Shown here: in pieces, positions 17,731 to 63,999 of the stretch
Layout of the letters: every line of letters starts with the position of its first letter
How positions within the stretch are numbered: position 1 is the stretch's first letter
Origin: Candidatus Woesearchaeota archaeon
GTDB lineage: Archaea; Nanobdellota; Nanobdellia; Pacearchaeales; JAHJTO01
Reading direction: 5' to 3'
NCBI GenBank assembly: GCA_964540065.1
Contig: CAZIKY010000003.1
Location: forward strand, 9,186-73,185
DNA length: 64,000 nucleotides
The notes under the pieces: generated by a model
Seen by the model: only the letters and a program-made list of their open reading frames with translations
The model's database searches: none
What the model was told of the DNA's origin: nothing
Translations under genes and position numbers: made by a program

Positions 17731-18693
17731 ATGAGCGAGTTGTGGACTGAAAAATACAGGCCGAAGGAGTTTTCTGAGCTTTTCGGCCAGGAGGCGATAG
17801 TTTCCAGGGTAGAAGCTTTCGTAAAACAGAAGAATATGCCTCATTTAATGTTCACGGGCCCGGCAGGCACTGGAAAAAGCACTTTGAGCCTAATAACGGT
17901 AAAAAAGCTCTACGGAGACAGCTGGAGATCAAACTACCTCGAGCTTAACGCTTCAGATGAAAGAGGAATTGATGTAGTCAGGGAAAAAATAAAGGGTTTT
18001 GCAAGGACAAGGTCTCTTGACGGATCTTTCAAGATTATTTTTCTTGACGAAGCCGATGCTTTGACCAAAGAGGCGCAGCAGGCCTTGAGAAGGACAATGG
18101 AAATGTTCACTCAAACCTGCAGATTTATCCTTTCGTGCAATTATTCTTCAAAAATAATCGAGCCCATACAAAGCAGATGTGCAGTTTTTAGATTCAGGCA
18201 GCTAGATCAAGAGGCTGTAAATAAAATTGTAAAACATATTGCAGATTCAGAAGGCCTTTCAATAACAGAAGAAATTCCTGAGCTGCTCTTCGATCTGAGC
18301 AGCGGAGACTGCAGAAGGATGATAAATATAATGCAGGCAGCGGCAGTTACAGACAAAAATCTAACAAAAGAGCTTATACTCCAAATAGCCAAGAGCTCAA
18401 AACCCCAAGACATAAAGACAATGTTGGAGGCATCACTAAACGGCAATTTCACTGTTTCAAGAGAATTGATGCTTGATTTGATGCTTGAAAAAAGCATCAA
18501 CGGCATTGAAATGATCAAAAACATCATGGAGGCGATCCCCTCGCTTAAAGTGGATGACAGGATAAAGGTAAAGCTCATAGAAAAATGCGGAGAGGCAGAA
18601 TTCAGGCTAGTAGAAGGAAGCGATGAGTTCATCCAGCTCGAGGCTTTGCTTGCCTCCTTCGTCATGGCCGGCTACAAAAGCAGGCAAGAATAA
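17731..18693 (+). CDS. rfcS: Replication factor C small subunit
   Basis: WTEKYRP, GPAGTGKS, ELNASDERG, DEAD, SRC. Confidence 0.97.
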   Translation: MSELWTEKYRPKEFSELFGQEAIVSRVEAFVKQKNMPHLMFTGPAGTGKSTLSLITVKKLYGDSWRSNYLELNASDERGIDVVREKIKGFARTRSLDGSFKIIFLDEADALTKEAQQALRRTMEMFTQTCRFILSCNYSSKIIEPIQSRCAVFRFRQLDQEAVNKIVKHIADSEGLSITEEIPELLFDLSSGDCRRMINIMQAAAVTDKNLTKELILQIAKSSKPQDIKTMLEASLNGNFTVSRELMLDLMLEKSINGIEMIKNIMEAIPSLKVDDRIKVKLIEKCGEAEFRLVEGSDEFIQLEALLASFVMAGYKSRQE

Positions 18694-18709
18694 AGGATTG
18701 ATCCGGAAA

Positions 18710-19885
18710 ATGATGCTTACTGAAAAACACAGGCCTAAAAAAATTTCAGAGATAGTCGGGCAAAGAGAGGGCATTTCAAAAGTCCTCAGTTTTCTAAAGA
18801 AAAGCGGAAAGGCAGCGATTCTCCACGGCCCGGTAGGTTGCGGGAAAACTTCTGCAGTCCATGCAATCGCTTCAGAGTTAGGATATGAAGTCATAGAGTT
18901 GAATGCCGGAGACCTGAGAAATAGGGAAAGCATAAAGAACATAATCGGAAATGCAGTAGCACAAAAAAGCCTATTCTTTGAAAAGAAAATAATCCTCATA
19001 GATGAAATAGATAATTTGACAAGCCAGGATTATGGGGGATCGGGAGAGATCATATCTGTGATTTCATCAACGAAATATCCAGTGATCATGTGTGCGAATA
19101 AGCCTTTTGAAAAAAAGCTTATGAATCTTAGAAAGAAATGTGAGATGATTGAATTCAAAAGAGTCAGTCCAAGAGAGGTTTATGAGCTCCTCAAAAAAGT
19201 GTGTGCAGAAGAGGGAATCACTGCTGCAGATAACGCCCTCAAGCAGCTTTCATTATTATCTGGGGGAGATTTAAGGGCGGCTTTGAATGATCTTCAAGCT
19301 TCCGGAAAAGAGATAAACGAAGTCGCAGTAAGCAAACGGGAACAGGAAGTCAGTATCTTTAATGCCTTAAGACTGATATTTAAGGGGAGAAGCATCTCGG
19401 CGCTTAATGCCTTAGACAATATTGATGTGGACTTCAGCGAAGCGGTTCTCTGGATAGATGAAAACCTTCCTTCAGAGTATAGAAATAGGGATCTTTTCGA
19501 GGCCTACCAGGCCTTAAGCAAGGCGGATGTTTTCATGAAGAGGATAAGCAGACAGCAGCATTGGCACTTCTTAGTTTATGTTAATGCGATGCTTACTGCA
19601 GGCGTGGCATTATCAAAAAGGAAAGAGAGCAATACTTATGCCAATTACAAAAAATCAGGAAGGCTCCTGAAGCTGTGGATGTCGAACAGCTCCGGAAAGA
19701 GAGCAGTGGCAGAAAAATTCTACAAACATGTGCATTACTCGAGCAAAAAACTATTCAGGGAGCTTAGTTACCTCAAAGTTATATGTATGGATCAAAAAGT
19801 AAAAGATAATCTTGCGAAAGAGTTAAATTTAAATAAGGAAGAAGTGGAACTTCTTTTAGGACCAAATAGAAATCGTTACTTCTAA
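18710..19885 (+). CDS. rfcL: Replication factor C large subunit
   Basis: EKHRPK, GPVGCGKT, ELNAGD, IDEID, WIDEN; start taken at ATG 18710. Confidence 0.92.
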   Translation: MMLTEKHRPKKISEIVGQREGISKVLSFLKKSGKAAILHGPVGCGKTSAVHAIASELGYEVIELNAGDLRNRESIKNIIGNAVAQKSLFFEKKIILIDEIDNLTSQDYGGSGEIISVISSTKYPVIMCANKPFEKKLMNLRKKCEMIEFKRVSPREVYELLKKVCAEEGITAADNALKQLSLLSGGDLRAALNDLQASGKEINEVAVSKREQEVSIFNALRLIFKGRSISALNALDNIDVDFSEAVLWIDENLPSEYRNRDLFEAYQALSKADVFMKRISRQQHWHFLVYVNAMLTAGVALSKRKESNTYANYKKSGRLLKLWMSNSSGKRAVAEKFYKHVHYSSKKLFRELSYLKVICMDQKVKDNLAKELNLNKEEVELLLGPNRNRYF

Positions 19886-30020: not shown

Positions 30021-32489
30021 ATGAAGGTGAAATTCTTGCCATTGGATTATGACTATGTTGATTACAAAGGCGGAGCCATTGTAAGAATTTGGGGGAGGAC
30101 TGAAGAAGGAAAGCGCATATGCGTAATAGATTCTGCTCCGGCTTACTTCTGGGCGATTCCCCATGAAGATGTTGATATCAAAAAATATGCTGATAAGATC
30201 CTGGCAATTAAAACAGAGCATGCAAACAGAATTGCAAGAGTTACAGATGCTAAGATAAAAGATAAAAAGTTCATGGGAAAGGATGTCAAAGCAGTCCAGG
30301 TATTTGTCAGCAATCCAAAAGACATAACGGCCATTAAAGATCTCGTAAAAGATATCTCTGCAACCAAAGATAAAAAGGAGATAGATATAAACTTTGTAAC
30401 GCGATATATAATCGAAAAAGAAGTGAAGCCTTTGACGTGGCAGACTGCTGAAGGAAAAGAGATTTTAGATAAAGAGTACGGCGATCCAGACGTAGACATA
30501 ATCTTGGAGGCTAAATCAATAGCCGAGTCTCAGGATCAGCCGGATTTTTCTCCAAACAGTCTGGCTTTTGATATAGAAACAGAGCATTTTGAGATTGGAA
30601 AGGGAAAAATCTTGATGATCTCCCTTGCCAATAAAGATGTCCAAAAAGTCATAACATGGAAGCACTTCAAAGATCCCCCAAAAGAAGTGGAGTTTGTAAA
30701 AGACGAAGCAGAGCTCATAGAAAAGTTCGTTGAATTTGTTCATAAGAACAAGCCGGAGGTCTTGACAGGATACTTCTCAGATGGTTTCGACTTGCCTTAC
30801 CTTAGGGCAAGAGCAGATAAATACAAAATAAAACTAAACTTGGGCCTCGATGGGAGCAATGTAGCCTTAAGAGGAGGAGCAGTTAAAACTGCAGAGATAA
30901 GGGGTGTAGTCCACGTAGATTTGTTCAAGTTCATCGATAACATCATCTCCCCAACACTTCAGAGTGAGACAGTAAGGCTTAATGATGTTGCAAAAGAGCT
31001 CCTCGGAGATGAGAAAGTAAAAGTTGATTTGAACAAATTGATGAAAGAGCTTAAAGCTACAAAAGGAAAGCTCGAAGACATCGAGCTTAGAAAGTTTTCT
31101 CTCTACAGCCTCCAGGATTCGGTTCTGACAGCAAGGCTGTTTGATTATATGTGGCCAAGCATTTCAGAACTTACAAAAGTTATAAACGAGCCCCTTTTCG
31201 ACGTCTCGAGAGCAGCTTACTCCCAGCTCGTTGAAGATTACATAATCCATAACCTAAAACAGTTTAATGAAATCGCTGAAAACAGGCCCACAAGAGAAAA
31301 GATTGAAGATAGAAGAAGGGCAAGATATGCCGGAGGATTTGTCTTCCAGCCGGAAGCAGGATTATACGAAGATATTGTAGTATTCGACTTCCTTTCTCTG
31401 TATCCAAGCATAATAAGCAGCTTTAACATCTCACCTGCAACAATAACTGAATCGACAAAGAATACCAATACCTCCCCGGTTATGGATCTCGGAGGAAAAA
31501 AAGCAAAGTTTAATTTTGAAAAGGGTAAATCCTTCATCCCTGCATTAATAGAGCAGATAATCGAAGCAAGAAAAAAGATCAAATCCGAGTTAAAGAAGAA
31601 AAAGTCTCCAATACTGGAAGCGAGAAGTTATGCCCTTAAAACTCTAGGGAATGCAACTTATGGTTATTACGCCTTCTTTGGAGCTAGATATTATTCCGTA
31701 GAATCTGCAGCTTCAATCACTGCCTTCGGCAGAGATTATATCCAAAAAGTTATAGAAGATGCAACAAAGTCCGGCTTCAAAGTGATTTATGCAGACACAG
31801 ACAGCGTAGTGATTGTTCTTGGAAATAAAACCCATAAAGACGCTCTCGAATGGCAGAAGAAAATAAATGATTCCCTTCCAGGGACCATGGAGTTAGATCT
31901 GGAAAAGTTCTACAAAAGAGGGATATTTGTTTTAAAGAGAACAGGGGAAGCAGGAGCTAAGAAGAAATACGCCCTTCTTGGAGAGGATGGGGCAATGAAG
32001 ATAAGAGGATTCGAAAGCGTCCGCAGAGACCGGTGCCCACTAGCCAAAAAAACCCAGGATCATGTCCTTCAAAGCGTGCTTGAAGAAGGAAAGCCGGACT
32101 CTGCCTTAAAGCAGGTAAAAAGCGTTCTTGACGAAGTCATAAAGGGAAAGGCGAAAACTGAGGAGCTTGTAATAAGAACCCAGCTTACAAGAGACATAGA
32201 ATCTTACTCAAGTATAGGCCCCCATGTTGAAGTCGCAAAACGCATGAGGGAAATGGGCATCCCGATCGGAGCAGGGTCACTCATAGAGTATGTAGTTGTA
32301 AAGGGAAAAGAAAAGCTTATCAGGGAAAGAGCCAGGCTTCCAGATGAAGTAGAAGATGGGCAGTACGATCCGGAATATTACATTGACAACCAGATAATGC
32401 CTCCGATAGAAGGCATTTTTGCAGTCTTTGGAATAACAAAAGACCAGCTTACGGAGCTGAAAAAGCAAAAAAAGCTTATGGATTTCTAA
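30021..32489 (+). CDS. polB: Family B DNA polymerase, intact exonuclease and polymerase motifs, no intein
   Basis: FDIETE, FDLPYL, YSLQD, DFLSLYPSII, KTLGNATYGY, YADTDS, YYIDNQIMP. Confidence 0.96.
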   Translation: MKVKFLPLDYDYVDYKGGAIVRIWGRTEEGKRICVIDSAPAYFWAIPHEDVDIKKYADKILAIKTEHANRIARVTDAKIKDKKFMGKDVKAVQVFVSNPKDITAIKDLVKDISATKDKKEIDINFVTRYIIEKEVKPLTWQTAEGKEILDKEYGDPDVDIILEAKSIAESQDQPDFSPNSLAFDIETEHFEIGKGKILMISLANKDVQKVITWKHFKDPPKEVEFVKDEAELIEKFVEFVHKNKPEVLTGYFSDGFDLPYLRARADKYKIKLNLGLDGSNVALRGGAVKTAEIRGVVHVDLFKFIDNIISPTLQSETVRLNDVAKELLGDEKVKVDLNKLMKELKATKGKLEDIELRKFSLYSLQDSVLTARLFDYMWPSISELTKVINEPLFDVSRAAYSQLVEDYIIHNLKQFNEIAENRPTREKIEDRRRARYAGGFVFQPEAGLYEDIVVFDFLSLYPSIISSFNISPATITESTKNTNTSPVMDLGGKKAKFNFEKGKSFIPALIEQIIEARKKIKSELKKKKSPILEARSYALKTLGNATYGYYAFFGARYYSVESAASITAFGRDYIQKVIEDATKSGFKVIYADTDSVVIVLGNKTHKDALEWQKKINDSLPGTMELDLEKFYKRGIFVLKRTGEAGAKKKYALLGEDGAMKIRGFESVRRDRCPLAKKTQDHVLQSVLEEGKPDSALKQVKSVLDEVIKGKAKTEELVIRTQLTRDIESYSSIGPHVEVAKRMREMGIPIGAGSLIEYVVVKGKEKLIRERARLPDEVEDGQYDPEYYIDNQIMPPIEGIFAVFGITKDQLTELKKQKKLMDF

Positions 32490-33202: not shown

Positions 33203-35152
33203 ATGGCCGAAGCACCAAAACAACAGGAACAGCAGCAGCAGCTGGAGCATATAGATGAGTTCAATATTTTAGTTGGAGCAATAAAAGATTACAACCCGCA
33301 TGCCGACTTGAATCTCATAAGCAAGGCCTTCGAATTTGCTTCAGCAGCGCATAAAGGCCAAAAAAGGGAATCTGGAGAAGATTATATAACTCATCCTATA
33401 GGGGTAGCGCAGATACTTACTGAAATAAAAGTCGATTCCCTAACAATTGCCGGAGCATTGCTTCATGACGTTCTTGAAGATACAAATTCCACAAAAGAAG
33501 AGATGATTAAGGAATTTGGACAGGAAGTCACAGACCTTGTTGAAAGCTTGACAAAGATAGACAAGATACACTTCAAAACAAAAGAAGATTATAGTGCGGA
33601 AAACATAAGGAAAGTAGTTCTCGCAATGTCTAAGGACGTTAGAGTCATCCTGATAAAACTTGCCGACAGACTCCATAACATGCGGACTCTTAAGTCCAAA
33701 CCTGAAAAAGACCGCATAGAGAAATCAAAAGAGACTCTCGAAATTTATGCTCCCATCGCCTACAAACTGGGGATTTACAAGATCAAGGCAGAGCTTGAAG
33801 ATCTTTCAATGAAATTCCTTGAGCCGGAGATCTATCAAGAATTAAAAGAAAAGATAGCAAAGAAAAAAGGCGAAAGAGAAGAAGATGTTGCGATTATAAC
33901 TAACCAAATCACAAATTTGATGGAGTCTAAGGGAATCAAGGCAAGAGTTTTTGGAAGGGCAAAACACTTCTATTCGATTTACAAAAAAATGCTTAAGCAT
34001 AAAGTGGGATTTGATGAAATCTACGACCTTCTTGCAGTAAGGATCATCACCGCCTCAGTAGATGATTGCTATAGGGCTCTGGGAATTATCCATTCAACTT
34101 TCACCCCGATACCTTCATTCTTCGAAGACTACATAGCCACTCCAAAAGCTAACGGATATCAAAGCATCCATACAAAAGTAGTTTACGAAGGAAGGCCACT
34201 CGAAGTTCAGATAAGAACAGTGGATATGCACCACATTGCGGAAGATGGAATAGCAGCCCACTGGAGATACAAAGAGACAGAATATGACAAAAGATTCGAC
34301 AAGAAAATATCATGGCTGAAGCAAATACTTACTTGGAAAAGGGAAGCAAAAAGCGCAAAGGAGTTTATAGAATCCTTAAAAATTGATCTGTTCGAACATG
34401 AAATAGTCGTTCTTACCCCCAAGGGAGATCCCGTTTCTCTCCCGGAAAGTTCTACGCCAATAGATTTTGCGTATCATCTCCACACAGAAATCGGAAACAC
34501 CTGCCAGAAGGCAAAGGTAAACGGAGTCATAGTTTCCTTGGACCATGAATTAAAGTCCGGAGATATAGTTGAGATCTTGACTTCAAAAAACTCTTCTCCA
34601 TCGAGGAACTGGCTTAAATTCGCCAAAACATCATTTGCAAGAGCCGAAATAAGGCAGGCCCTGGATATCAAAGGAGTCCAAAGAGAAGATGATTCAGAGG
34701 ATTTCCTTCTTGCCCAGGAAATTCTAGTCGAGGATCCAAGGATGAAAGAAAGGCTGAGAATTTCCAGATGCTGCAATCCAAGATTTGGTGAAGAAATAAC
34801 TGCCTTTGTCCTTAAAGATGGAAGAATAAGCGTTCATAGGACAAATTGTTCCAACTTAGCCGAGCACAAAGACCTCAAAAGAGTAAATGTAAGCTGGCCT
34901 CCACCCAAAAAAGAGGTTTTAACGCTTGACATCTCTGCCACAGATAGGCTAGGTTTATTGGCTCAGATACTCAACATAATTGCTGAAGCAAGCCTAAACG
35001 TCAAATCGATAAATACTGCTGAAAGAAAGGGTCATTTTAAGATAATGATTAATGTGGAAGCAGACGATTTAAATAAAGCGAAACAATCTGCAGATAGAAT
35101 AAAGAAGATAGCAAGTGTAAGCACAGTCTATCTCCATAAAGAGCAGCATTAA
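33203..35152 (+). CDS. rel: Long bifunctional RelA/SpoT homolog ((p)ppGpp synthetase/hydrolase): HD-SYNTH-TGS-ZFD-ACT
   Basis: HKGQKRESGEDYITHP, LHDVLED, KLADRLHNMRT, GRAKHFYSI, DLLAVR, NGYQSIHT, EVQIRT, AAHWRYK, TGS, CCNP..H..C, DRLGLL. Confidence 0.95.
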   Translation: MAEAPKQQEQQQQLEHIDEFNILVGAIKDYNPHADLNLISKAFEFASAAHKGQKRESGEDYITHPIGVAQILTEIKVDSLTIAGALLHDVLEDTNSTKEEMIKEFGQEVTDLVESLTKIDKIHFKTKEDYSAENIRKVVLAMSKDVRVILIKLADRLHNMRTLKSKPEKDRIEKSKETLEIYAPIAYKLGIYKIKAELEDLSMKFLEPEIYQELKEKIAKKKGEREEDVAIITNQITNLMESKGIKARVFGRAKHFYSIYKKMLKHKVGFDEIYDLLAVRIITASVDDCYRALGIIHSTFTPIPSFFEDYIATPKANGYQSIHTKVVYEGRPLEVQIRTVDMHHIAEDGIAAHWRYKETEYDKRFDKKISWLKQILTWKREAKSAKEFIESLKIDLFEHEIVVLTPKGDPVSLPESSTPIDFAYHLHTEIGNTCQKAKVNGVIVSLDHELKSGDIVEILTSKNSSPSRNWLKFAKTSFARAEIRQALDIKGVQREDDSEDFLLAQEILVEDPRMKERLRISRCCNPRFGEEITAFVLKDGRISVHRTNCSNLAEHKDLKRVNVSWPPPKKEVLTLDISATDRLGLLAQILNIIAEASLNVKSINTAERKGHFKIMINVEADDLNKAKQSADRIKKIASVSTVYLHKEQH

Positions 35153-37938: not shown

Positions 37939-40218
37939 TTATCCCATATAACCCGGCATGTCTCTTTTGTGGTGCTTTGTTTGCTTCATAGCGACTTCTA
38001 TTTCCTTATACTGCTTGGCATCTCCATCGCCGACGCTAGGTTTGACCTTCTTCAAAGCTTCCTCAAAGTGCTTCTTCTTGACTTCCTTGGCGCTTATGCT
38101 GTCTCTCAAAGCCTGCATTCCAGCTTCTCTGCATACTGCTTCAACATCTGCTCCGACAAATCCTTCACATTTTTCAGCAAGAGGTGCAAAGTCAACATCT
38201 GAAGCGAGAGGCATGTCTTTAGTATGTATCTTGAATATATCCGCAAGTCCTTTCTTTGAAGGTATTTCTGTTGCGACTATCCTGTCAAATCTTCCAGGCC
38301 TAAGTAAAGCAGGATCAAGCATGTCTGGCCTGTTTGTAGCTCCGATTACTACAACTCCCTCTAAGCCGACAACTCCATCCATTTCAGCAAGCATTTGATT
38401 AAGGACTCTTTCAGTTACTTTAGTTCCAGAGTCATATCCTCTTCTTGATGCCAAGGCATCTATCTCATCAAAGAAGACTATACAAGGAGCAACCTGTCTG
38501 GCTCTTTCAAATACCTTTCTTATTCCTTTCTCGCTCTCTCCAACCCATTTGGAAAGAAGCTCTGGACCTTTAACCTGTATAAAATTAGCTTGGCTTTCGG
38601 TAGCTACCGCCTTGGCAAGCAAGGTTTTTCCAGTTCCAGGTGGGCCGAAAAGTAAAATTCCACGCGGCGGCCTTACTCCAACATTCTTGAATACTTCAGG
38701 TTTAGTAAGAGGCCACTCAACTGCTTCTTTAAGATCTTGTTTGATCCTTTCAAGTCCGCCGATATCAGCCCATTTAACATTAGGAGTCTCGACAAAGACT
38801 TCTCTCATTCCGGAAGGCTGCACAACATTCATAGCCTCTCTAAGGTCTTTGTCAGAGATATAAAGTTTCTTTAATACTTCTTCAGAAATTGGCCCTTCAG
38901 CATTTTCAAGTTTAAGATTAGGGAAAACTTTTCTAACCCTGCACATAGCGGCTTCTTTGCAAAGTGCAGATAAATCTGCGCCAACAAAACCATGAGTCAA
39001 TCCAGCATATTTTTCTAAGTCGACACTCTTATCAAGAGGCATATTCCTGGTATGGATTTTTAAAATTGAGAGTCTCCCTTCTCTGCTTGGGACCCCGATA
39101 TTTATCTCTCTGTCAAATCTTCCTCCCCTTCTAAGAGCAGGATCGATAGAATCTGGCCTGTTTGTAGCTGCAATAACTACAACTCTTCCTCTGCTTTTCA
39201 AGCCATCCATGCATGTAAGCAGCTGGCTTACCACCCTTCTTTCTACTTCTCCGTAGCTTTCTTCCCTTTTTGGAGCAATAGCATCGATTTCATCAATAAA
39301 AATTACTGCAGGGGAATTCTTCTCTGCTTCGGTGAATATATCTCTTATTTTTTTCTCGCTTTCCCCGTAGAACTTTGACATGATCTCGGGCCCATTAACA
39401 AGAACAAAATTCGCCTCAGACTCATTTGCAACCGATTTCGCCATTAAAGTTTTTCCCGAACCAGGAGGTCCGAAAAGCAAAACTCCCTTTGGAGGATCGA
39501 TTCCGAGTCTTGAGAAGATTTCAGGATGTTTGAGCGGAAGCTCAACCATTTCCCTAATCCTTTTAATCTCATCATTCAATCCTCCGATGTCCTCATACGT
39601 GACTTCAGGGACGTTTTCTTCAGAAATTTCGACCGCTACAGGATTCAAAACGAATTCTGTCGCGTCAGAGATGAAAGTTGCACCTTTTGGATTGGTGTTA
39701 ACAATTACAAATCTAGTGGTATTAAACTGCCCGAAAGACATATTCAATGCCTCTCCAAAAATATCAAAGAGGTCATTCTCAAAAGAATCCGCTTGGAAGT
39801 CTCTTTTTCTTCTTCCTCCCCCGAGAACAACGATGTCTCCGGAATTTACGGGTCTCCCAATCAATCCTTTTCTAAAGATATCGGGGTCAGCTTGAACTCT
39901 TATTCCTTTTTGGGCGGGAGCGATAGTGACTTTCTTAGCTTCCTTAACTTCAACGACAGAAACTGTTACGACTTCCCCAATTCCGGCCTTTGCGTTCTTC
40001 CTTATAATCCCGTCTATTCTTATTATCGGTTCTCCTACGTCAGCAGGATATGCACGATCAGCAATGACTATTGTCTCTCTTCCGCCTTTAATAGAAATGA
40101 AATCTCCTGGCTTTATTCCAAGCCTCTTCATTATGTTAGTGTTTATTCTTGCAATTCCCTTGTAGGCATCTTCCTGCAGGGATTCCATAACCTTCAACCT
40201 TACCAATTCTTCAGCCAT
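37939..40218 (-). CDS. cdc48: CDC48/VCP family AAA+ ATPase
   Basis: N-domain plus two AAA modules (GPPGSGKT/IDEID; GPPGTGKT/FDEID), two SRH motifs. Confidence 0.98.
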   Translation of the reverse strand: MAEELVRLKVMESLQEDAYKGIARINTNIMKRLGIKPGDFISIKGGRETIVIADRAYPADVGEPIIRIDGIIRKNAKAGIGEVVTVSVVEVKEAKKVTIAPAQKGIRVQADPDIFRKGLIGRPVNSGDIVVLGGGRRKRDFQADSFENDLFDIFGEALNMSFGQFNTTRFVIVNTNPKGATFISDATEFVLNPVAVEISEENVPEVTYEDIGGLNDEIKRIREMVELPLKHPEIFSRLGIDPPKGVLLFGPPGSGKTLMAKSVANESEANFVLVNGPEIMSKFYGESEKKIRDIFTEAEKNSPAVIFIDEIDAIAPKREESYGEVERRVVSQLLTCMDGLKSRGRVVVIAATNRPDSIDPALRRGGRFDREINIGVPSREGRLSILKIHTRNMPLDKSVDLEKYAGLTHGFVGADLSALCKEAAMCRVRKVFPNLKLENAEGPISEEVLKKLYISDKDLREAMNVVQPSGMREVFVETPNVKWADIGGLERIKQDLKEAVEWPLTKPEVFKNVGVRPPRGILLFGPPGTGKTLLAKAVATESQANFIQVKGPELLSKWVGESEKGIRKVFERARQVAPCIVFFDEIDALASRRGYDSGTKVTERVLNQMLAEMDGVVGLEGVVVIGATNRPDMLDPALLRPGRFDRIVATEIPSKKGLADIFKIHTKDMPLASDVDFAPLAEKCEGFVGADVEAVCREAGMQALRDSISAKEVKKKHFEEALKKVKPSVGDGDAKQYKEIEVAMKQTKHHKRDMPGYMG

Positions 40219-50969: not shown

Positions 50970-53276
50970 ATGGCTGAGCCGGAATTCTTCCCAATGAGCC
51001 CTCCAAAAGAGGTCACTACTGTTAAGGCTAAGCCTAAACCCAGCAGAGAAGAGCTGGAAAAAATAGAGCCCCCAAAAAATCCCGTTATAAAAAAAGCTCC
51101 AAGTTTAGAGGGGCAGCCCAAACCTAAGAAAAAAAGGGCTCCAAAAAAGAGCAAGAAGCTGGAGGTTTCTTCTGAAGAATATTCTCACAAGAATTCAAAT
51201 CCTAAAGAAAAAATAACGCTAGTCATAACAGAAAAGCCGCAGGCAGCTATGAAAATAGCTTATGCCCTTTCAGACACTAAGCCGACTGCAAGGAAAGTGG
51301 GACAGGTTACTTATTTTGAAGTGAACCGCGGAGAAGAAAAGATAATTGTCGGCTGTGCAGTAGGGCATCTTTTCACTCTTGCCGAGATCGGGAAAAAGAA
51401 ATGGCCTAATTTTGATTTGGAATGGGTTCCAAACCACACTAAAAAGGGATCAGAATTCACAAAAAGATATCTAGATGTTCTGAAGACCCTGGCTAAGAAA
51501 GCAAACAATTATGTGGTGGCATGCGACTACGATGTTGAGGGAGAAGTCATAGGACTCAATGTTGTCAGGTTTGCATGCGGCATGAAAGATGCAAAGAGGA
51601 TGAAATTCTCAACGCTCACAAAAGAGGACCTGAATTCCGCTTATGAAAAATTATCTCCCTCTCTCGATTGGGGCCTGGCTTATGCCGGAGAAACAAGGCA
51701 TTATTTGGATTGGCTTTACGGAATAAATTTAAGCAGGGCCTTAATGTCCGCCATGAAAAAAGCTGGGACATTCAAGATAATGAGCATCGGAAGAGTCCAG
51801 GGCCCAGCGCTTGCACTTGTCGTGAAAAAAGAAAAAGAGATTATGGCCTTTAAATCGTCTCCCTACTGGCAGGTTTCCCTTTTAGTTAAGAATGGGCATG
51901 AACTTTTGGTAAAATATCCTAACAACATCACTAAAAAAGATGAGCTTGAATTCTTCAAGAAGCTTAAGGGCAAGGAAGGAGTCGCGAAAACAGAAAAGAA
52001 AGAGGAAAGGCTCCTACCCCAAACACCTTTTGACCTCACAACATTGCAGATGGAGGCCCATAGACTGCATGGATTCTCTCCGGCAAGAACACTTCAGCTT
52101 GCCCAGCAGCTTTATCTCGCAGGAGTCATCTCCTATCCTAGAACCTCTTCTCAAAAACTCCCAACAAGCATTGGATATAACAAGATATTGGCAAGCTTGC
52201 CCAAATCCTTCACTAAGTTTGCAAAAAGGAAACAGCCGATAGAAGGAAAAAAGACCGACCCGGCCCATCCATCAATTTATCCAACCGGAGAAATTCCGGG
52301 GACTTCAGATGAAGACCAGCTCAAGCTTTATGACCTCATAGTAAAGAGATTCATAAACTGCTTCTGCGATGATGCAATAATCGAAACTAAAAACATAAAA
52401 GTCACTGTGGAAGGAAAGAATTTTTCGGCAAAAGGTCTTGAAGTAAAAGAAAAAGGATGGCTTAACGTTTATCCATCAAGAATAGAAGAAAAAAGCCTTC
52501 CAGACATTAATGGAAAAATAACTGTAAAAGAGGTTATTACTGAGGAGAAAATGACCCAGCCACCACACAGATATAGTGATGCAAGTTTAGTTTCTGAGCT
52601 CGCAAAGCGCAACCTCGGAACAAAATCCACGAGGGCGCTTATAGTAGAAACCCTTAAGGAAAGAGGCTATGTTTCACATGAAAGGCAGCTCAAGGCAACC
52701 CCCTTGGGAATAGCAGTAACAGACTCATTGTTAAAGAATTCTCCACTGATACTTAATGAGGAGCTTACTAGAAAATTCGAAAAAGAGATGGAATCTATCC
52801 AAACTTCAAAAAAAGGAGAGGAAGAGGAAAAAAGAATATTGAAAGAAGCTAGAACTGTTCTAGAAAAAATAGCTGAAGAGCTTAAGAAAAATGAGGAGAA
52901 AATGGGTAAAGAGCTTGCCGAAGCACAAGGAGAAGTGAGGAAGGGAGAAATAGAAGCCTCTAAACTTATTCTTTGCCCTAAATGCCAAAAAGGGTGGGTT
53001 TCTATAAGAAGAAGCAGATTCGGCTTCTTCCTGGGATGCAATGCCTATCCAGAATGCAAGAATACTTATCCTCTCCCTTCAAATGCTTTAATCAAAAAGA
53101 CAGACAAAACCTGCGAATGTGGGTGGCCAATGCTCCTTTCAATTAAAAAGGCAAAGAGACCTTGGCAATTCTGCGCTAATCCTGCTTGTCCAAGAAGACA
53201 GGAAAAGACCAAGCACGAGCACTTTGAGCCAAAAGAAGAATCGGATAAGCAAGAAAGTGAAGTTTTGGAAGAGTAA
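50970..53276 (+). CDS. topA: Type IA DNA topoisomerase with P/K-rich N-terminal extension and Zn ribbons
   Basis: ITEKP, CDYDVEGE, SIGRVQGP, ISYPRT (catalytic Tyr), HPSIYPT, LGTKSTR, C4 motifs. Confidence 0.96.
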   Translation: MAEPEFFPMSPPKEVTTVKAKPKPSREELEKIEPPKNPVIKKAPSLEGQPKPKKKRAPKKSKKLEVSSEEYSHKNSNPKEKITLVITEKPQAAMKIAYALSDTKPTARKVGQVTYFEVNRGEEKIIVGCAVGHLFTLAEIGKKKWPNFDLEWVPNHTKKGSEFTKRYLDVLKTLAKKANNYVVACDYDVEGEVIGLNVVRFACGMKDAKRMKFSTLTKEDLNSAYEKLSPSLDWGLAYAGETRHYLDWLYGINLSRALMSAMKKAGTFKIMSIGRVQGPALALVVKKEKEIMAFKSSPYWQVSLLVKNGHELLVKYPNNITKKDELEFFKKLKGKEGVAKTEKKEERLLPQTPFDLTTLQMEAHRLHGFSPARTLQLAQQLYLAGVISYPRTSSQKLPTSIGYNKILASLPKSFTKFAKRKQPIEGKKTDPAHPSIYPTGEIPGTSDEDQLKLYDLIVKRFINCFCDDAIIETKNIKVTVEGKNFSAKGLEVKEKGWLNVYPSRIEEKSLPDINGKITVKEVITEEKMTQPPHRYSDASLVSELAKRNLGTKSTRALIVETLKERGYVSHERQLKATPLGIAVTDSLLKNSPLILNEELTRKFEKEMESIQTSKKGEEEEKRILKEARTVLEKIAEELKKNEEKMGKELAEAQGEVRKGEIEASKLILCPKCQKGWVSIRRSRFGFFLGCNAYPECKNTYPLPSNALIKKTDKTCECGWPMLLSIKKAKRPWQFCANPACPRRQEKTKHEHFEPKEESDKQESEVLEE

Positions 53277-58849: not shown

Positions 58850-60091
58850 CTAATCAAACTTCCTCCCTTTCCACCTTATATTTCCGAAGAATCTATAAAA
58901 AACTGCAAAAGCCCACCAGATCGCATAGAGGTAAGTATAATACCAGAAATAATAGGTGTAGCTAAGCTTGACATCCTCATTTTCTCCGCTTTTTATTTTG
59001 GCGATGTAAATGAAGAGGATATTGAAGAGTATCAGGATAACCAAAAAGAAGGTTATGGGGCTTGTAAGCTCATAATAAAGATATTCATACTTGAACCCCT
59101 TAAGCAGAGTCCACAAATCAAACTCTACCAGGCCAAAATTAATCAGGGTTCTTACAAAATTACTCAAGGTCTGAATAGTGAAATAAGAAATTAGCACAAA
59201 TATCATAAGTACCGAAAGGATGGCTGAAGGAAGTGCAAGTGTTGAAAGGTAGCCGTATCTTGGGTGGAAGAGATGTTTGTAAACTTCGAGGTTCTTTATC
59301 AAACCATGATACCACCTTGTTCTTTGATCCAATAATTCTTTGAACTTTCTCGGGGAGACAGTATAAACAACTGCATCAACGCTATTCTCTATCTTATAAT
59401 TGCAGGACTGTATCCTTAATGCAATCTCGGTATCTTCGGTGGCATTTTTCTCATCAAAGCCGCCATGCTTATCAAAGAACTCTTTTCGGTAAAGGGAAAA
59501 AGGTCCGGGAGTTACATGCAGGACATTTATGAAAGAAAAGACCTTTCTGTAAAAAATTCCGAAAAGATATTCTATATGCTGGACCCTTTGAAGGGCTCCT
59601 TTTGGCCTATAAACTTTAAGGGAGGGAGTTACTGAAGCAACCTGTGGATCTTCAAAATATCCAACCATCTTGATCAAAGCGTCAGGGGTAACGAAAGAAT
59701 CTGCATCGAGAGTAGCAATTATCTTGCCCTTAGATCTGGAAATACCATAATTTATCGCAGAAGCCTTTCCGCCGTTAGGCTTTGTGAAAACTTTGACCCT
59801 TGGATCTCCTGAAGCAACCTTCTTAGAGATCTTCAGAGTATCGTCTTTGCTGCCATCATCTATAACTAGGATTTCAAGAAGAGGGTAATTGAGGTCTTGG
59901 ACGGATTTAATGGTTTTTTCTATGTTCTCCTGCTCATTATATGCCGGGATTATGACTGAAACAAGATGAAGTTTTTTGGGCTTAGGGTTTTTCATCTTGC
60001 CCATATTCTCAAGAAGAGTAATTATAAAGAAAATTGCGAGGAATATTCCCACAAAGGAGACTGCATAAATTAGCTGATATCTGAATAACAT
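58850..60091 (-). CDS. GT2 processive glycosyltransferase (PgaC/CesA-like)
   Basis: PAYNE, DDGSKD, GKA, DADS, TED, QRTRW; flanking TM segments. Confidence 0.9.
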   Translation of the reverse strand: MLFRYQLIYAVSFVGIFLAIFFIITLLENMGKMKNPKPKKLHLVSVIIPAYNEQENIEKTIKSVQDLNYPLLEILVIDDGSKDDTLKISKKVASGDPRVKVFTKPNGGKASAINYGISRSKGKIIATLDADSFVTPDALIKMVGYFEDPQVASVTPSLKVYRPKGALQRVQHIEYLFGIFYRKVFSFINVLHVTPGPFSLYRKEFFDKHGGFDEKNATEDTEIALRIQSCNYKIENSVDAVVYTVSPRKFKELLDQRTRWYHGLIKNLEVYKHLFHPRYGYLSTLALPSAILSVLMIFVLISYFTIQTLSNFVRTLINFGLVEFDLWTLLKGFKYEYLYYELTSPITFFLVILILFNILFIYIAKIKSGENEDVKLSYTYYFWYYTYLYAIWWAFAVFYRFFGNIRWKGRKFD

Positions 60092-60092
60092 T

Positions 60093-60779
60093 TTATTGGG
60101 CGTCTGAGTTTTTTTCTTCTAAATCTTCATCACCCATTTCTTGCCCTTCGGCTTCTTCAAGTTCTGCTTCAGTTTCTTCCGCTTCTTCAGATTCAACTTC
60201 AGCCCCGCTGAATTCTTCTGATCCATCTGCGCCTTCTATCTGAACAGTATGGGATGCGTCTTCATCGGGTCCTCTCGCTTCAACACTCTTGGCCTCTGCT
60301 TCAAGCCTTTCCCTAGCCTTTAATCCGAAATAATCATAAAACGCATCATCAAGCCTGAGCTCGTATGTATGGCCTACCTTCTTGGGCTTAACAAGCCCAA
60401 CATCAATAAGTTTCTTGACATGATCATAAGCCTTATTTCCCCTTATCTTGACGACAAGGGATTGATTTATTGGCTGTTTGTAAGCGATTATTGCAAGGGT
60501 TTCCTGCTCGGCTTTAGTAAATTCGGCGCTCCCGGAGGCGAGTTTATTTGTTAGATAAGCATATTCCTGCTTGATATCCATTTTGTAAAGCTCTCCTTTG
60601 ATTATGAGGTCCAAGGCCCCAGTGTTATTTTTATATTTCTGCTCGAGTTTCTTCATAGTCTCCTTGATCGAAAGAGGATTTATCCCGGTGTACATAACAA
60701 GATCATTCACCGTAAGGAATCTTCCAGCTATGAACAAAACTGCTTCAACAATTCCCTCCGTGTTTTTTTCTCTTGCCAT
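60093..60779 (-). CDS. scpB: SMC-Scp complex subunit ScpB with acidic tail
   Basis: VEAVLF, ETLAIIAYKQPI, VKIRG, GLV; E-rich C-terminus. Confidence 0.88.
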   Translation of the reverse strand: MAREKNTEGIVEAVLFIAGRFLTVNDLVMYTGINPLSIKETMKKLEQKYKNNTGALDLIIKGELYKMDIKQEYAYLTNKLASGSAEFTKAEQETLAIIAYKQPINQSLVVKIRGNKAYDHVKKLIDVGLVKPKKVGHTYELRLDDAFYDYFGLKARERLEAEAKSVEARGPDEDASHTVQIEGADGSEEFSGAEVESEEAEETEAELEEAEGQEMGDEDLEEKNSDAQ

Positions 60780-60811
60780 CTTATTTTATATTGGCATATA
60801 GGTTTTAAACA

Positions 60812-63199
60812 TTACTTGAAAGCAAACCTCAGCAAAGCCCCAATCCCCCCAAGATTCTTGAATTGAACTCCTTCATCTGTCTGAGTTGAAATAAAAATCA
60901 CATCTGTTCCCATGGAGGCTGCGATCTCGCGGAGCTCATCCATCTTAGCTTTGTCAAGTTCTTTGGAAAGATACAATTTATCGGCAGCTCCGGCACTCAG
61001 AGCTTTTTTAACTTCGGCGTAGCCGTAAGCAACTTTGTCTGGATCTTTTCCAAGCGTAGTGAAAAAAGTTTTAAGAACTTCCTTCTCATGGGTTATTTCC
61101 TGTGCAGCAAGAATGTCTTGAGAAAGTTCGACAAGAACATGCAGGCCGTATTCATCAGTATAGCTTATGTCTTTTACTCCGATTATTTTATTCTTTATTG
61201 GGGTGGGGATCTGTCCTTCACTCAAGAAAGATTCCTTCGTTGGTCCGGGCCCGCCGACCAATATCCCTTTAAGCTTTTTCATTTCTGAGAACTGTTCTTT
61301 TACAGCTTCTCCGACTTTTCGGTAAAAAGCTAGGGCAAGTCCCTCGGTTAATCTTTCAAACCTCTGTGCCGAATTATGTACTACAAGTCCGTTAGCAATG
61401 AAGTTATGGTTCTTAGTCTCTATGTCTATGGTAATTTCTTCTCCAAGCTTTTCTATTTTAGAAATTTTTACTGCGATTAAGTTAGAGCCGTAAAACATCT
61501 CAAGCCTTTTTCTTAAGGATTCATCTGATATTTTATCCAAAATTCTCGCCTTGAAAACCTGCTTGCTTAATTGCTTCTTGTTTATAAAAAAATCTGGACA
61601 CATAAACCGGGTAGTATCCAAACCGGAATTTCTGATGATTCTCGCAACTTCCTTGCCGTTTACAACCAATTGCCTTACCTTATTGCGGTTGCTTCTTTTA
61701 GATATCAGTTGATTAATTTTATCTTGCTTTTCAAACGAAGTAAATCCAACCAAATCAAAAAATTTCTTTAAAGATTCAGTATCATCTATAGATACTATAT
61801 ATCTAAGGTTCTTAGAATAAGGATTTCTTTTATTGTCATAAGAGGAAAGAGAGGATATTATCCCCAACCTTAATAATGCTAATTGTAGCTGTCTTACTAG
61901 AACTTCATTGTTCATACTTAGAGATATTCTTCCGCTAGATAAAGAAATAGATCCTTCGGCATCAAACAAGCCAGAAATAAATGAAGCAAGTACTCTATCT
62001 GAAGATTTCAAGATAACTGGCGGGATTTTTTCATTTGAAGTTTTATCCTTTTCAGGGAATACACTCTTAAAGAATTGCGTGACTAATCTGCTATAAATTC
62101 TTAATTGGTGATAATTCTTAGAAGCCCTAAACGAATACTTAACTTCTAAACCAAAAAGGTTCTCCAGTAATAATTTATAACTCTCAGCAACTTCCTTTCT
62201 CTGCTCAAAGAAAGTTAATCTGTCCGTTTCGTGGCCACCATCACCCAAATAATAGCCAAAAACCTTTGCTAACTCAGGAGTTATTTTAGCTGGAAGCACA
62301 ACTTGCTTCATAGTCTTGTGTTCTATCTTGGGCTTAAAGTCTATAATTTGATCTTCTAGTTCTAGGTTTATCTTTTCTGGCATGACCAAGAAATCTCCTT
62401 CTTTTATCTCTGAAAGGGGCTTCTCTTCTATACCGTTTTCAGTTCTAACAAAGAAAGTATGGTCTGCAGAGGATTTTATCTCCATCCGAGGATAAGAAGT
62501 CGTCATCTTGAAAAGAGGTTTCTTATTCTCCCATTTAGCAATAATCGGGGTCTCTTCTATTGTTTCTTTATTAAAGTTCTCGGAAACAATGATCAAAGGG
62601 TTATGAGAATCTTTAATTTGAATTATATCTCCAGAACTTGTCATTAAAAGTGTATCTGGATGAAGACATTGACCGCCGGCCTTCATCTTCCCAGGAACAG
62701 CCGAAGTCATGTGTTTCAGCTTTCTTATGTGTTTTCCTTCAAGCACGCCGATCGTCGCTTCTCTTCTGTCCATAACGATCAATCCATAAACCTCTTGTGT
62801 TTCGAGGAGTTCTTTAAGGGGATCAACGACAAATTTCTGATCGCACCGATAAGTCTTCATATTAATAGGGCTTGGTGGCTCGATGCTCCAGAGCTTTATG
62901 TCGGGCTTGCCTTCATCTTTGCTTATGTTGCCGCAGAAAACTGCGAGCCCATTCTTTGGGGTCTGTTTGAACTGTCTTAGGTGCCTTGAGATCTTTCCGA
63001 GAGCTTCGATAACATTTTCTCTGGTGGATTTACTCTTAATATTTGAAGCAGTTCCCGCTTCAGAATCTACCTGCTTAGCCGATAGAATGATGCTGTATCC
63101 TGCAGGAACATAAACTGTAATTAGTTCAGTATGGCGCCCCCTATAAGAATCGAGCTCTTCTATGAGCCTTTCAAGTTGCATCCTTTCTTCATCTTCCAT
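60812..63199 (-). CDS. prf1: Peptide chain release factor aRF1, intein-containing precursor (795 aa; about 363 aa spliced)
   Basis: TELITVY, TASNIKS, YRCD, VPGKMKAGGQ|intein|SAQRFER, GILVGGPG.TK, GGIGALLRF. Confidence 0.96.
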   Translation of the reverse strand: MEDEERMQLERLIEELDSYRGRHTELITVYVPAGYSIILSAKQVDSEAGTASNIKSKSTRENVIEALGKISRHLRQFKQTPKNGLAVFCGNISKDEGKPDIKLWSIEPPSPINMKTYRCDQKFVVDPLKELLETQEVYGLIVMDRREATIGVLEGKHIRKLKHMTSAVPGKMKAGGQCLHPDTLLMTSSGDIIQIKDSHNPLIIVSENFNKETIEETPIIAKWENKKPLFKMTTSYPRMEIKSSADHTFFVRTENGIEEKPLSEIKEGDFLVMPEKINLELEDQIIDFKPKIEHKTMKQVVLPAKITPELAKVFGYYLGDGGHETDRLTFFEQRKEVAESYKLLLENLFGLEVKYSFRASKNYHQLRIYSRLVTQFFKSVFPEKDKTSNEKIPPVILKSSDRVLASFISGLFDAEGSISLSSGRISLSMNNEVLVRQLQLALLRLGIISSLSSYDNKRNPYSKNLRYIVSIDDTESLKKFFDLVGFTSFEKQDKINQLISKRSNRNKVRQLVVNGKEVARIIRNSGLDTTRFMCPDFFINKKQLSKQVFKARILDKISDESLRKRLEMFYGSNLIAVKISKIEKLGEEITIDIETKNHNFIANGLVVHNSAQRFERLTEGLALAFYRKVGEAVKEQFSEMKKLKGILVGGPGPTKESFLSEGQIPTPIKNKIIGVKDISYTDEYGLHVLVELSQDILAAQEITHEKEVLKTFFTTLGKDPDKVAYGYAEVKKALSAGAADKLYLSKELDKAKMDELREIAASMGTDVIFISTQTDEGVQFKNLGGIGALLRFAFK
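61373..62668 (-). mobile_element. Intein with LAGLIDADG homing endonuclease (432 aa) inserted between GGQ and Ser of aRF1
   Basis: N-terminal CLHPDT, block B SADH, LAGLIDADG-like FGYYLGDG and ISGLFDAEG, block F/G IDIET..NFIANGLVVHN, +1 Ser. Confidence 0.95.
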
Positions 63200-63246
63200 T
63201 TTTTAAAGAATTTTAGAAGGGTTATAAACGTTGTTGTGAATATAAG

Positions 63247-63999
63247 CTAATCAACAAGCTTAATTTCAAGTTTATTTCCCCATTTAATATCTGTGGCAGC
63301 AGTTACTGCCTTAAGATCTTCAAGATAAGGCTCCAAGACCTTCTTATTTTTGTTTTCAAGAATCAAAGAAATAGGAGCCTTTAACGATTTCCCGCTTTTC
63401 GATTTGAAATGCCTTACTTCTCCAAGAACCGCTACAGCCAAATCTCCACCGCCGGTATCCACACTTTGTTTCTCAGCTAAAGGCCATTCAGAAGTGTTTA
63501 TGGATTTGATTTTCTCATGGGCTCTGAAATACTTCTGATAAAGCTCCTCTGAAATGTGGGGCATTATCGGAGCAAGTAGTTTTAGTATCGAAAGAGTTGA
63601 GTGATACAAAGCATATTTTGCAGATTCTCTGTCTTCTTTACTCCTTTTTTCATTGTAAAGCCTATCTTTTACAATCTCCAAATAATTATCGCAGAAAACA
63701 TGCCAGAAGAAAATTTCCAGTTCCATCTTCAGCTTAGAATATTCATAACTTTCTATTCCTTCAGTTGACCTTTTGACAACATCATTTAACTTTGAAAGGA
63801 TCCAGGAATCAAACAGGTGGAGTTTCTTCGGTTTCGCAGGTTTATCTTTAAGATGCATGGACATAAACTTCGTGGCATTCCATATCTTTGTGATCAGCTT
63901 CTGCCCCGCAACTAATTCTTTTTCCTGGAAAGGAACATCTTCCCCGAGCTTCGCTGCACATGTCGCAAATCTAAGCGCATCGGCAGAATATTTCTGAAT
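63247..63999 (-). CDS. valS: Valyl-tRNA synthetase, C-terminal part (5'-truncated by window edge)
   Basis: Frame open to window end: KYSADALRF..AKLGEDV, KIWNA, DSWILSKL, FCDNYLEIVKDRLY, LLAPIMPH. Confidence 0.9.
   Translation of the reverse strand: MQKYSADALRFATCAAKLGEDVPFQEKELVAGQKLITKIWNATKFMSMHLKDKPAKPKKLHLFDSWILSKLNDVVKRSTEGIESYEYSKLKMELEIFFWHVFCDNYLEIVKDRLYNEKRSKEDRESAKYALYHSTLSILKLLAPIMPHISEELYQKYFRAHEKIKSINTSEWPLAEKQSVDTGGGDLAVAVLGEVRHFKSKSGKSLKAPISLILENKNKKVLEPYLEDLKAVTAATDIKWGNKLEIKLVD

Follow-up and report, generated by a model that had tools for sequence, protein, structure and literature searches.

A putative homing intein lineage inserted at the catalytic GGQ motif of release factor aRF1 in DPANN archaea

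We analysed a 64-kb stretch of contig CAZIKY010000003.1 from a Candidatus Woesearchaeota archaeon (hereafter, the window), in which an open reading frame (ORF) on the reverse strand encodes the precursor of the archaeal release factor aRF1, interrupted by a putative intein immediately after the catalytic GGQ motif (Table 1). The host protein belongs to the aRF1/eRF1 class-1 release factors: taken whole, it passes the cutoff of the TIGR03676 aRF1_eRF1 equivalog model (386.8 bits vs. 234.7), it contains the three eRF1 domains, and it carries the NIKS, YxCxxxF and GGQ motifs. In the Pfam analysis eRF1_1, eRF1_2 and eRF1_3 flank matches to Intein_splicing (1.4e-16) and to LAGLIDADG_3/PF14528 (2.4e-18), and the E-values of the domain models lie far beyond what chance would give. 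Deletion of the insert leaves a protein of 363 amino acids (aa) with the continuous sequence GGQSAQRF, which aligns from end to end with intein-free aRF1s.

The two junctions read KAGGQ/CLHPDT...GLVVHN/SAQRFER (a slash marks the splice point here and below), and the C-terminal one, DIETKNHNFIANGLVVHN/S, is recognised by TIGR01443 with a score of 23.6 against a cutoff of 15.6. The invariance of the splicing and endonuclease residues was judged in an alignment of 118–119 homologues, and from its sequence the insert appears to be a class-1 intein with a HINT domain and a complete set of splicing residues. Both LAGLIDADG motifs terminate in a catalytic acid (GYYLGDG and GLFDAEG), which is invariant in 118 inteins. 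The helical region that follows the endonuclease core is the best-conserved part of the intein and has its lowest ratio of nonsynonymous to synonymous divergence (dN/dS, 0.07 in one homologous pair), and it may constitute an accessory DNA-binding module. In addition, the AlphaFold2 model of the precursor, obtained with 119 sequences, has a mean predicted local distance difference test (pLDDT) score of 85.8; most of the intein lies above 90, and values below 50 are found only at residues 170–175 and 612–617, which are the extein stretches beside the junctions. In Foldseek searches against the PDB the extein part matches archaeal aRF1 (4af1; E=9e-23, TMt 0.76), and the intein part, which is predicted to adopt the HINT fold, matches 7qss (E=2e-27, TMt 0.76) as well as 1dq3, 2cw7 and 1vde, the matched structures being the endonuclease-associated TliVMA intein, PI-PfuI, PI-PkoII and PI-SceI. 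We also considered whether the insert could be removed at the RNA level, like an archaeal intron with a LAGLIDADG gene, and rejected this, because the insert is in frame, has all the intein blocks and a HINT fold, and has its boundaries exactly at Cys1 and at Asn/Ser.

An earlier interpretation of this DNA made from its letters alone (the sequence-only reading) had already described the ORF, the 432-aa insert, the GGQ/C and N/S junctions and the residues expected for splicing (Cys1, the block B His, the penultimate His, the terminal Asn and the +1 Ser), and translation and domain models bear out all of these. The two LAGLIDADG motifs and the 363-aa protein with restored GGQSAQRF that it proposed are likewise found, and PolB, RFC, TopA and CDC48, in which it saw no inteins, are indeed intein-free in the window.

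Table 1. Coordinates of the aRF1 precursor, its parts and other genes in the 64-kb window (aa numbering of the precursor unless stated).
Feature	Position	Strand	Remarks
aRF1 precursor ORF	60812..63199	-	795 aa + stop; TIGR03676 E=1e-115
N-extein, aa 1-177 (aRF1 N domain and first part of M domain, GGQ at end)	62669..63199	-	eRF1_1 and baeRF matches
NIKS stop-codon recognition motif, aa 53-56	63032..63043	-	N53 and K55 invariant
YxCxxxF motif (YRCDQKF), aa 117-123	62831..62851	-	Y117, C119 and F123 invariant
GGQ catalytic motif, aa 175-177	62669..62677	-	Gln177 is the intein -1 residue
Putative intein, 432 aa, aa 178-609	61373..62668	-	between Gln177 of GGQ and Ser610
Cys1 (Cys178), block A nucleophile	62666..62668	-	Cys in 118/119 full-length homologues
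Block B, S244-A-D-H247, SxxH variant of TxxH	62459..62470	-	S244 and H247 invariant
LAGLIDADG homing-endonuclease core, about aa 305-505	61685..62287	-	PF14528; secondary structure, pLDDT >90
LAGLIDADG motif 1, KVFGYYLGDG, catalytic Asp320 (intein Asp143)	62237..62266	-	G319, D320 and G321 invariant
LAGLIDADG motif 2, FISGLFDAEG, catalytic Glu415 (intein Glu238)	61952..61981	-	F412, D413, A414, E415 and G416 invariant
Helical region, aa 506-572, between endonuclease core and C-terminal splicing strands	61484..61684	-	helices 515-570 in model
Blocks F and G, TIDIETKNHNFIANGLVVHN, His608-Asn609 at end	61373..61432	-	TIGR01443; D592 (block F), H608 and N609 invariant
Ser+1 (Ser610), C-extein nucleophile	61370..61372	-	conserved S of GGQS
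C-extein, aa 610-795 + stop (remaining M domain, C domain of aRF1)	60812..61372	-	eRF1_2 and eRF1_3 matches
GT2 glycosyltransferase	58850-60091	-	
ScpB	60093-60779	-	
Class-I aminoacyl-tRNA synthetase, C-terminal part	63247-63864	-	gene continues past window edge
RFC subunit	17731-18693		no intein
RFC subunit	18623-19885		no intein
PolB	30021-32489		no intein
RelA/SpoT-type protein	33203-35152	+	649 aa; HD_4, RelA_SpoT, TGS and ACT domains
CDC48	37939-40218		no intein
TopA	50970-53276		no intein

With the whole precursor as query, 784 matches at E<=1e-10 were obtained among 5.8 billion proteins. The best 120 of these all share the domain set of the window precursor and, with the exception of one partial record, are about 790–815 aa long; 118 of them have the junctions GGQ/C...HN/S, the intein length is 429–433 aa, and the sources that carry a name are Pacearchaeota or Nanoarchaeota. 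In public metagenomes, homologous inteins occupy GGQ/S in hundreds of aRF1 genes. An exhaustive HMMER search with the spliced exteins, covering 1.84 billion representatives at 50% identity, gave 3285 matches, and among the best 150, which were analysed, at least 51 aRF1 clusters have an insert exactly at GGx/S. In these occupied clusters, whose names include Woesearchaeota and Micrarchaeota, 14 inserts are mini-inteins of 130–152 aa without endonuclease, the others having 271–577 aa. All are homologous to the window intein, the full-length forms with 26–46% identity and E-values down to 1e-109. Since so many clusters carry homologous inserts at a single insertion site, the aRF1 GGQ/S inteins appear to form one old and diversified lineage, specific to this site in DPANN archaea.

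Two variants within this lineage deserve mention. Many inteins at this site, with a length of about 500 aa (P0137, P0149, P0170, P0234 and others), are extended by some 70 residues located between the N-terminal splicing part and the endonuclease core; the proteins are called XRE-type helix-turn-helix regulators by some source pipelines, which suggests that this sub-lineage gained a DNA-binding module. In another homologue, P0118, Cys1 (TGT) is replaced by Arg (CGT), with His-Asn/Ser intact. Three assemblies, of which at least two come from Rifle groundwater data, contain the identical P0118 sequence, and it lies at the usual aRF1-ScpB-GT2 locus (L090:2033-4414, L091:2033-4414 and L092:3790-6171). 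By canonical chemistry this allele should be unable to splice; it may represent a genuine splice-dead variant, implying another source of aRF1, or a sequencing error common to the assemblies.

We scanned GTDB with the extein alignment as query, using one genome per species, and examined the best 80 loci among 569 relatives. All 80 are intein-free and 78 have GGQS; contiguous matches were ranked first, and the result thus shows empty sites and gives no frequency of the intein. The best of these empty loci (L001) has 66% identity to the window extein, the same value as the closest intein-bearing homologue. The gene order class-I aminoacyl-tRNA synthetase, aRF1, ScpB and GT2 is shared by the window, by the occupied loci L081, L090 and L095, and by many empty loci, and therefore the occupied and empty sites are orthologous and do not represent paralogues. 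This block (58850-63864 on the reverse strand of the window; also L002, L004, L008, L081, L090 and L095) is widespread in Nanoarchaeota genomes, with small insertions in some of them.

Pairs of exteins with opposite states reach 93% identity (P0076, occupied, vs. L034, empty), and in this pair the DNA is 89% identical, with the boundary between presence and absence falling exactly between the Gln and Ser codons. On a neighbour-joining tree of 317 exteins the state of the site requires at least 69 changes, compared with 105 ± 5 when the states are shuffled, with the proviso that the tree is crude and that errors in it inflate the count. The distribution of the intein is clumped yet very labile. 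The sequence-only reading had proposed to map intein-plus and intein-minus alleles in relatives, and both states are found at orthologous loci; its suggestion of an unlosable homing site is contradicted, since intein-free alleles with such similar exteins are abundant among the closest relatives at the same syntenic locus.

The intein also has a history of its own. Across the 118 homologues its identity stays flat, at about 0.67–0.72, over a range of extein identities from 0.40 to 0.80, and the mean identity is higher for inteins (68.5%) than for exteins (59.8%), statistics that are biased by the choice of the 120-homologue set by similarity to the query. The precursors P0051 and P0057 have exteins with 98% identity and inteins with 73% identity, the change being abrupt at both junctions, and in the corresponding DNA (L093 and L094) the synonymous divergence (dS), compared in this one pair, is 0.18–0.21 for the exteins and 1.08 for the intein. 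The intein copies must therefore be far older than the split of the host genes, which argues for horizontal exchange and not for fast local decay. In the same pair, dN/dS is 0.17 for the intein, 0.21 for the endonuclease core, and about 0.03–0.05 for the exteins, the helical module having the low value given above. The endonuclease is under purifying selection, and the intein moves independently of the host gene. The surroundings of these two genes differ as well: L093 and L094 do not share their gene neighbourhood, and no relationship is seen over the 200 bp upstream (51% identity), so that either the genomes were rearranged here or the whole aRF1 gene moved. Base composition was considered as an indicator of origin and discarded as uninformative, because the GC content of the intein, although 5–10 points below that of its own extein in three hosts, tracks the GC of the host.

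These data bear on the alternative of a fixed, domesticated or immobile intein, in which the endonuclease would be inactive or repurposed and inheritance in the lineage would be vertical only. Such an element would account for the correlation between intein and extein distances (Mantel r=0.54, a value reached by 0/300 permutations) and for the very uniform length of 429–433 aa. We nevertheless consider it very unlikely, given that the catalytic Asp and Glu are invariant, that the endonuclease core is constrained as described, that the intein dS is five times the extein dS in the close host pair, and that near-identical exteins occur both with and without the intein.

A further alternative, that the insertion does not splice, the interrupted aRF1 being a dead pseudogene and termination being supplied by a gene elsewhere in the genome, is hardly credible in our view. 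The homologue with Arg at intein position 1 is compatible with it, but the window gene has an intact reading frame and lacks none of the splicing residues, strong purifying selection acts on the exteins (with the dN/dS values given above), and the gene is syntenic with the only aRF1 of its relatives. A second, intein-free copy of aRF1, which by the sequence-only reading would have overturned the idea of an essential switch, was sought by tblastn in the 64-kb window, and neither a second aRF1 nor a further copy of the intein was found there.

Taken together, we consider that the insert is a selfish, actively homing class-1 intein with an intact double-motif LAGLIDADG endonuclease, whose splicing is required for a working aRF1, and we assign to this explanation a probability of about 0.85. 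The 795-aa precursor would be translated and the intein would fold, after which, by analogy with known class-1 inteins, an N-S acyl shift at Gln177-Cys178 would place Gln177 in a thioester with Cys178, transesterification would pass the N-extein to Ser610, Asn609 would cyclise with the aid of His608, and an O-to-N shift would rebuild the GGQ-S peptide bond. This would yield the 363-aa aRF1 and release the intein, with a mass of about 49 kDa. Following the PI-SceI/PI-PfuI paradigm, the free intein, through Asp143 and Glu238 (intein numbering), would cut intein-less aRF1 alleles at the coding sequence of GGQ/S, and recombinational repair would copy the intein into the cut allele. The fused, intein-less target site at GGQ/S would be ...GCCGGCGGTCAA/TCGGCACAGAGG..., also given as ...AAGGCCGGCGGTCAA/TCGGCACAGAGGTTT.... 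In populations this cycle would pass through empty sites, endonuclease-bearing inteins and endonuclease-less mini-inteins, and the empty sites, full-length inteins and mini-inteins found here appear to compose this classical picture. Peptidyl-tRNA hydrolysis requires entry of the GGQ loop into the peptidyl-transferase centre, so that the precursor probably has no such activity before splicing; in that case efficient splicing would be indispensable to the host, and this need by itself would explain the strong conservation of the splicing blocks.

Several points weigh against a homing, splicing intein. We infer the actual splicing and DNA cleavage from analogy with other inteins, and our view is limited to 64 kb of the genome. 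The P0118 allele persists despite the Arg at the position of Cys1. As stated above, the homologue set was selected by similarity to the query, the dS contrast comes from one pair, and errors in the tree raise the number of state changes counted. Moreover, in a scan of IMG/VR the intein gave no matches other than those of 21 residues in the generic block F/G, and no relative that could be the vector was found on a viral contig.

The intein could also have been co-opted as a conditional switch, as the sequence-only reading had suggested, in which case splicing would respond to redox, temperature, metals or growth state and would tune the termination capacity through the maturation of aRF1. The position of the insertion guarantees a precursor without a continuous GGQ loop, and other archaeal proteins provide examples of conditional inteins, such as RadA in work cited in an intein survey (PMC4760082). 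The better conservation of the intein relative to the extein might also be read in this direction, although horizontal spread and the need to splice account for it. In contrast, the intein is patchily distributed and absent from a large number of orthologues at the same locus, intein copies are exchanged horizontally, and the endonuclease is kept under selection, which would be needless for a pure regulator. Extein residues -3 to -1 are G-G-Q and do not include a Cys, no other obvious sensor feature was recognised, and the sole Cys of the intein besides Cys178 is Cys534, in the helical module. We thus found no evidence in support of a switch and regard it as unlikely, since a conserved host regulator would account less well than a selfish element for the patchy distribution and the horizontal exchange.

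By sequence, the solved structure nearest to the aRF1 intein is that of PI-PfuI from Pyrococcus furiosus (PDB 1DQ3, E=7.8e-18 over the endonuclease core), which also matches in fold, likewise belongs to class 1, and combines a double-motif LAGLIDADG endonuclease with accessory DNA-binding parts. However, its host is a ribonucleotide reductase of a hyperthermophilic euryarchaeon, the insertion site is unrelated, and the identity is only about 20%. The VMA1-type inteins (TliVMA 7QSS, PhoVMA and PI-SceI) resemble the aRF1 intein in bearing an endonuclease and in interrupting an essential protein in a catalytic region; the best match in fold is that to TliVMA, and PI-SceI serves as the classical paradigm of homing. 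In this case the host is the A subunit of the V/A-ATPase and the sequence identity is 12–17%, and the conserved helical module at aa 506-572 is particular to the aRF1 intein. A translation factor is the host of the archaeal aIF2/IF-2 (eIF5B-type) inteins, and the NCBIfam model of the intein-containing IF-2 (PRK14845) matches the aRF1 intein at 5e-18, but that host is an initiation GTPase and not a class-1 release factor. Finally, the MCM and PolB inteins of Haloarchaea (PMC10643990) show the same combination of occupied and empty alleles among close relatives, of endonuclease-bearing and mini-inteins, and of a history decoupled from that of the host. Those inteins reside in replication proteins of cultivable organisms and their homing was shown experimentally, whereas the aRF1 intein is known by comparison alone.

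The sequence-only reading had not counted aRF1 among the classical intein hosts. This stands in so far as no searchable paper describes it as a host, but the rarity that was implied does not, given the hundreds of copies in databases; the many aRF1 GGQ inteins whose description would have removed the novelty do exist, in databases and not in papers. InBase is not known to list aRF1. Our full-text search of the literature brought up no account of an aRF1 or eRF1 intein: inteins and eRF1 both occur in the Bodo saltans virus paper, but separately, and neither the Anaeramoeba paper nor that of Burroughs & Aravind mentions a release-factor intein. The main text of the survey by Novikova et al. (PMC4760082) includes aIF2 among the archaeal hosts and reports few inteins in core translation components, and a release factor is absent from that main text. 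The aRF1 intein is thus absent from the papers found, yet plentiful in public databases, and it behaves exactly like known homing inteins.

The catalytic loop itself varies in this family. About 23 of the aRF1 relatives examined have GGW, GGF, GGM, GGS or GGA instead of GGQ, mostly in the form GG[W/F/M]SQ (P0127, P0129, P0132, P0141, P0143, P0144, P0146, P0156, P0163, P0169, P0173, P0181, P0189, P0192, P0206, P0212, P0216, P0222, P0251 and P0262, and the loci L018:4001-5047 and L022:4001-5086), which resembles the GGxSQ loop reported for the VLRF1 families (PMC6514570). Most of these relatives keep NIKS and nearly all keep YxCxxxF, and several have GGQ-bearing proteins as nearest neighbours. 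The synthetase gene that precedes the window aRF1 is also found upstream of L018 (GGS) and L022 (GGF), which therefore look orthologous and not paralogous. Loops without Gln are commoner in intein-bearing clusters (14 of 51) than in intein-free clusters (9 of 86), and we found no mention in the literature of non-GGQ aRF1 loops in DPANN archaea. A speculative extension, to which we give little credence, is that in part of the DPANN the intein is more than a parasite: as each aRF1 molecule has to be spliced, the rate of splicing, which could vary with temperature, redox or metals, would set the termination capacity, and selection for splicing at the -1 position may have pushed the loop from GGQ to GG[W/F/M]SQ in some lineages.

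Elsewhere in the window, the RelA/SpoT-type protein has the long architecture of a bifunctional (p)ppGpp synthetase/hydrolase, which is unusual in an archaeal genome, and its gene may be a bacterial acquisition.

The annotation of the interrupted genes is uneven. NCBI names for the aRF1 precursors P0015, P0022, P0038, P0047, P0048, P0276 and P0227 are 'hypothetical protein', 'LAGLIDADG family homing endonuclease' and 'helix-turn-helix domain-containing protein', and the record of P0047 carries the name of a bacterial group, Candidatus Paceibacterota; the JGI pipeline labels some of the proteins 'peptide subunit release factor 1 (eRF1)/intein/homing endonuclease'. As a consequence of the NCBI names, aRF1 may look missing or misaligned in automated annotation of DPANN metagenome-assembled genomes, and marker-gene phylogenies and completeness estimates of DPANN genomes are presumably affected likewise.

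With the aRF1 intein, a class-1 release factor joins the list of intein hosts, with the insertion at its catalytic GGQ loop. The compact mini-inteins, with Gln at -1 and Ser at +1, could be of interest to protein engineers, and the hundreds of empty, full-length and mini-intein alleles represent a large natural data set on the homing cycle in uncultivated archaea with small genomes.

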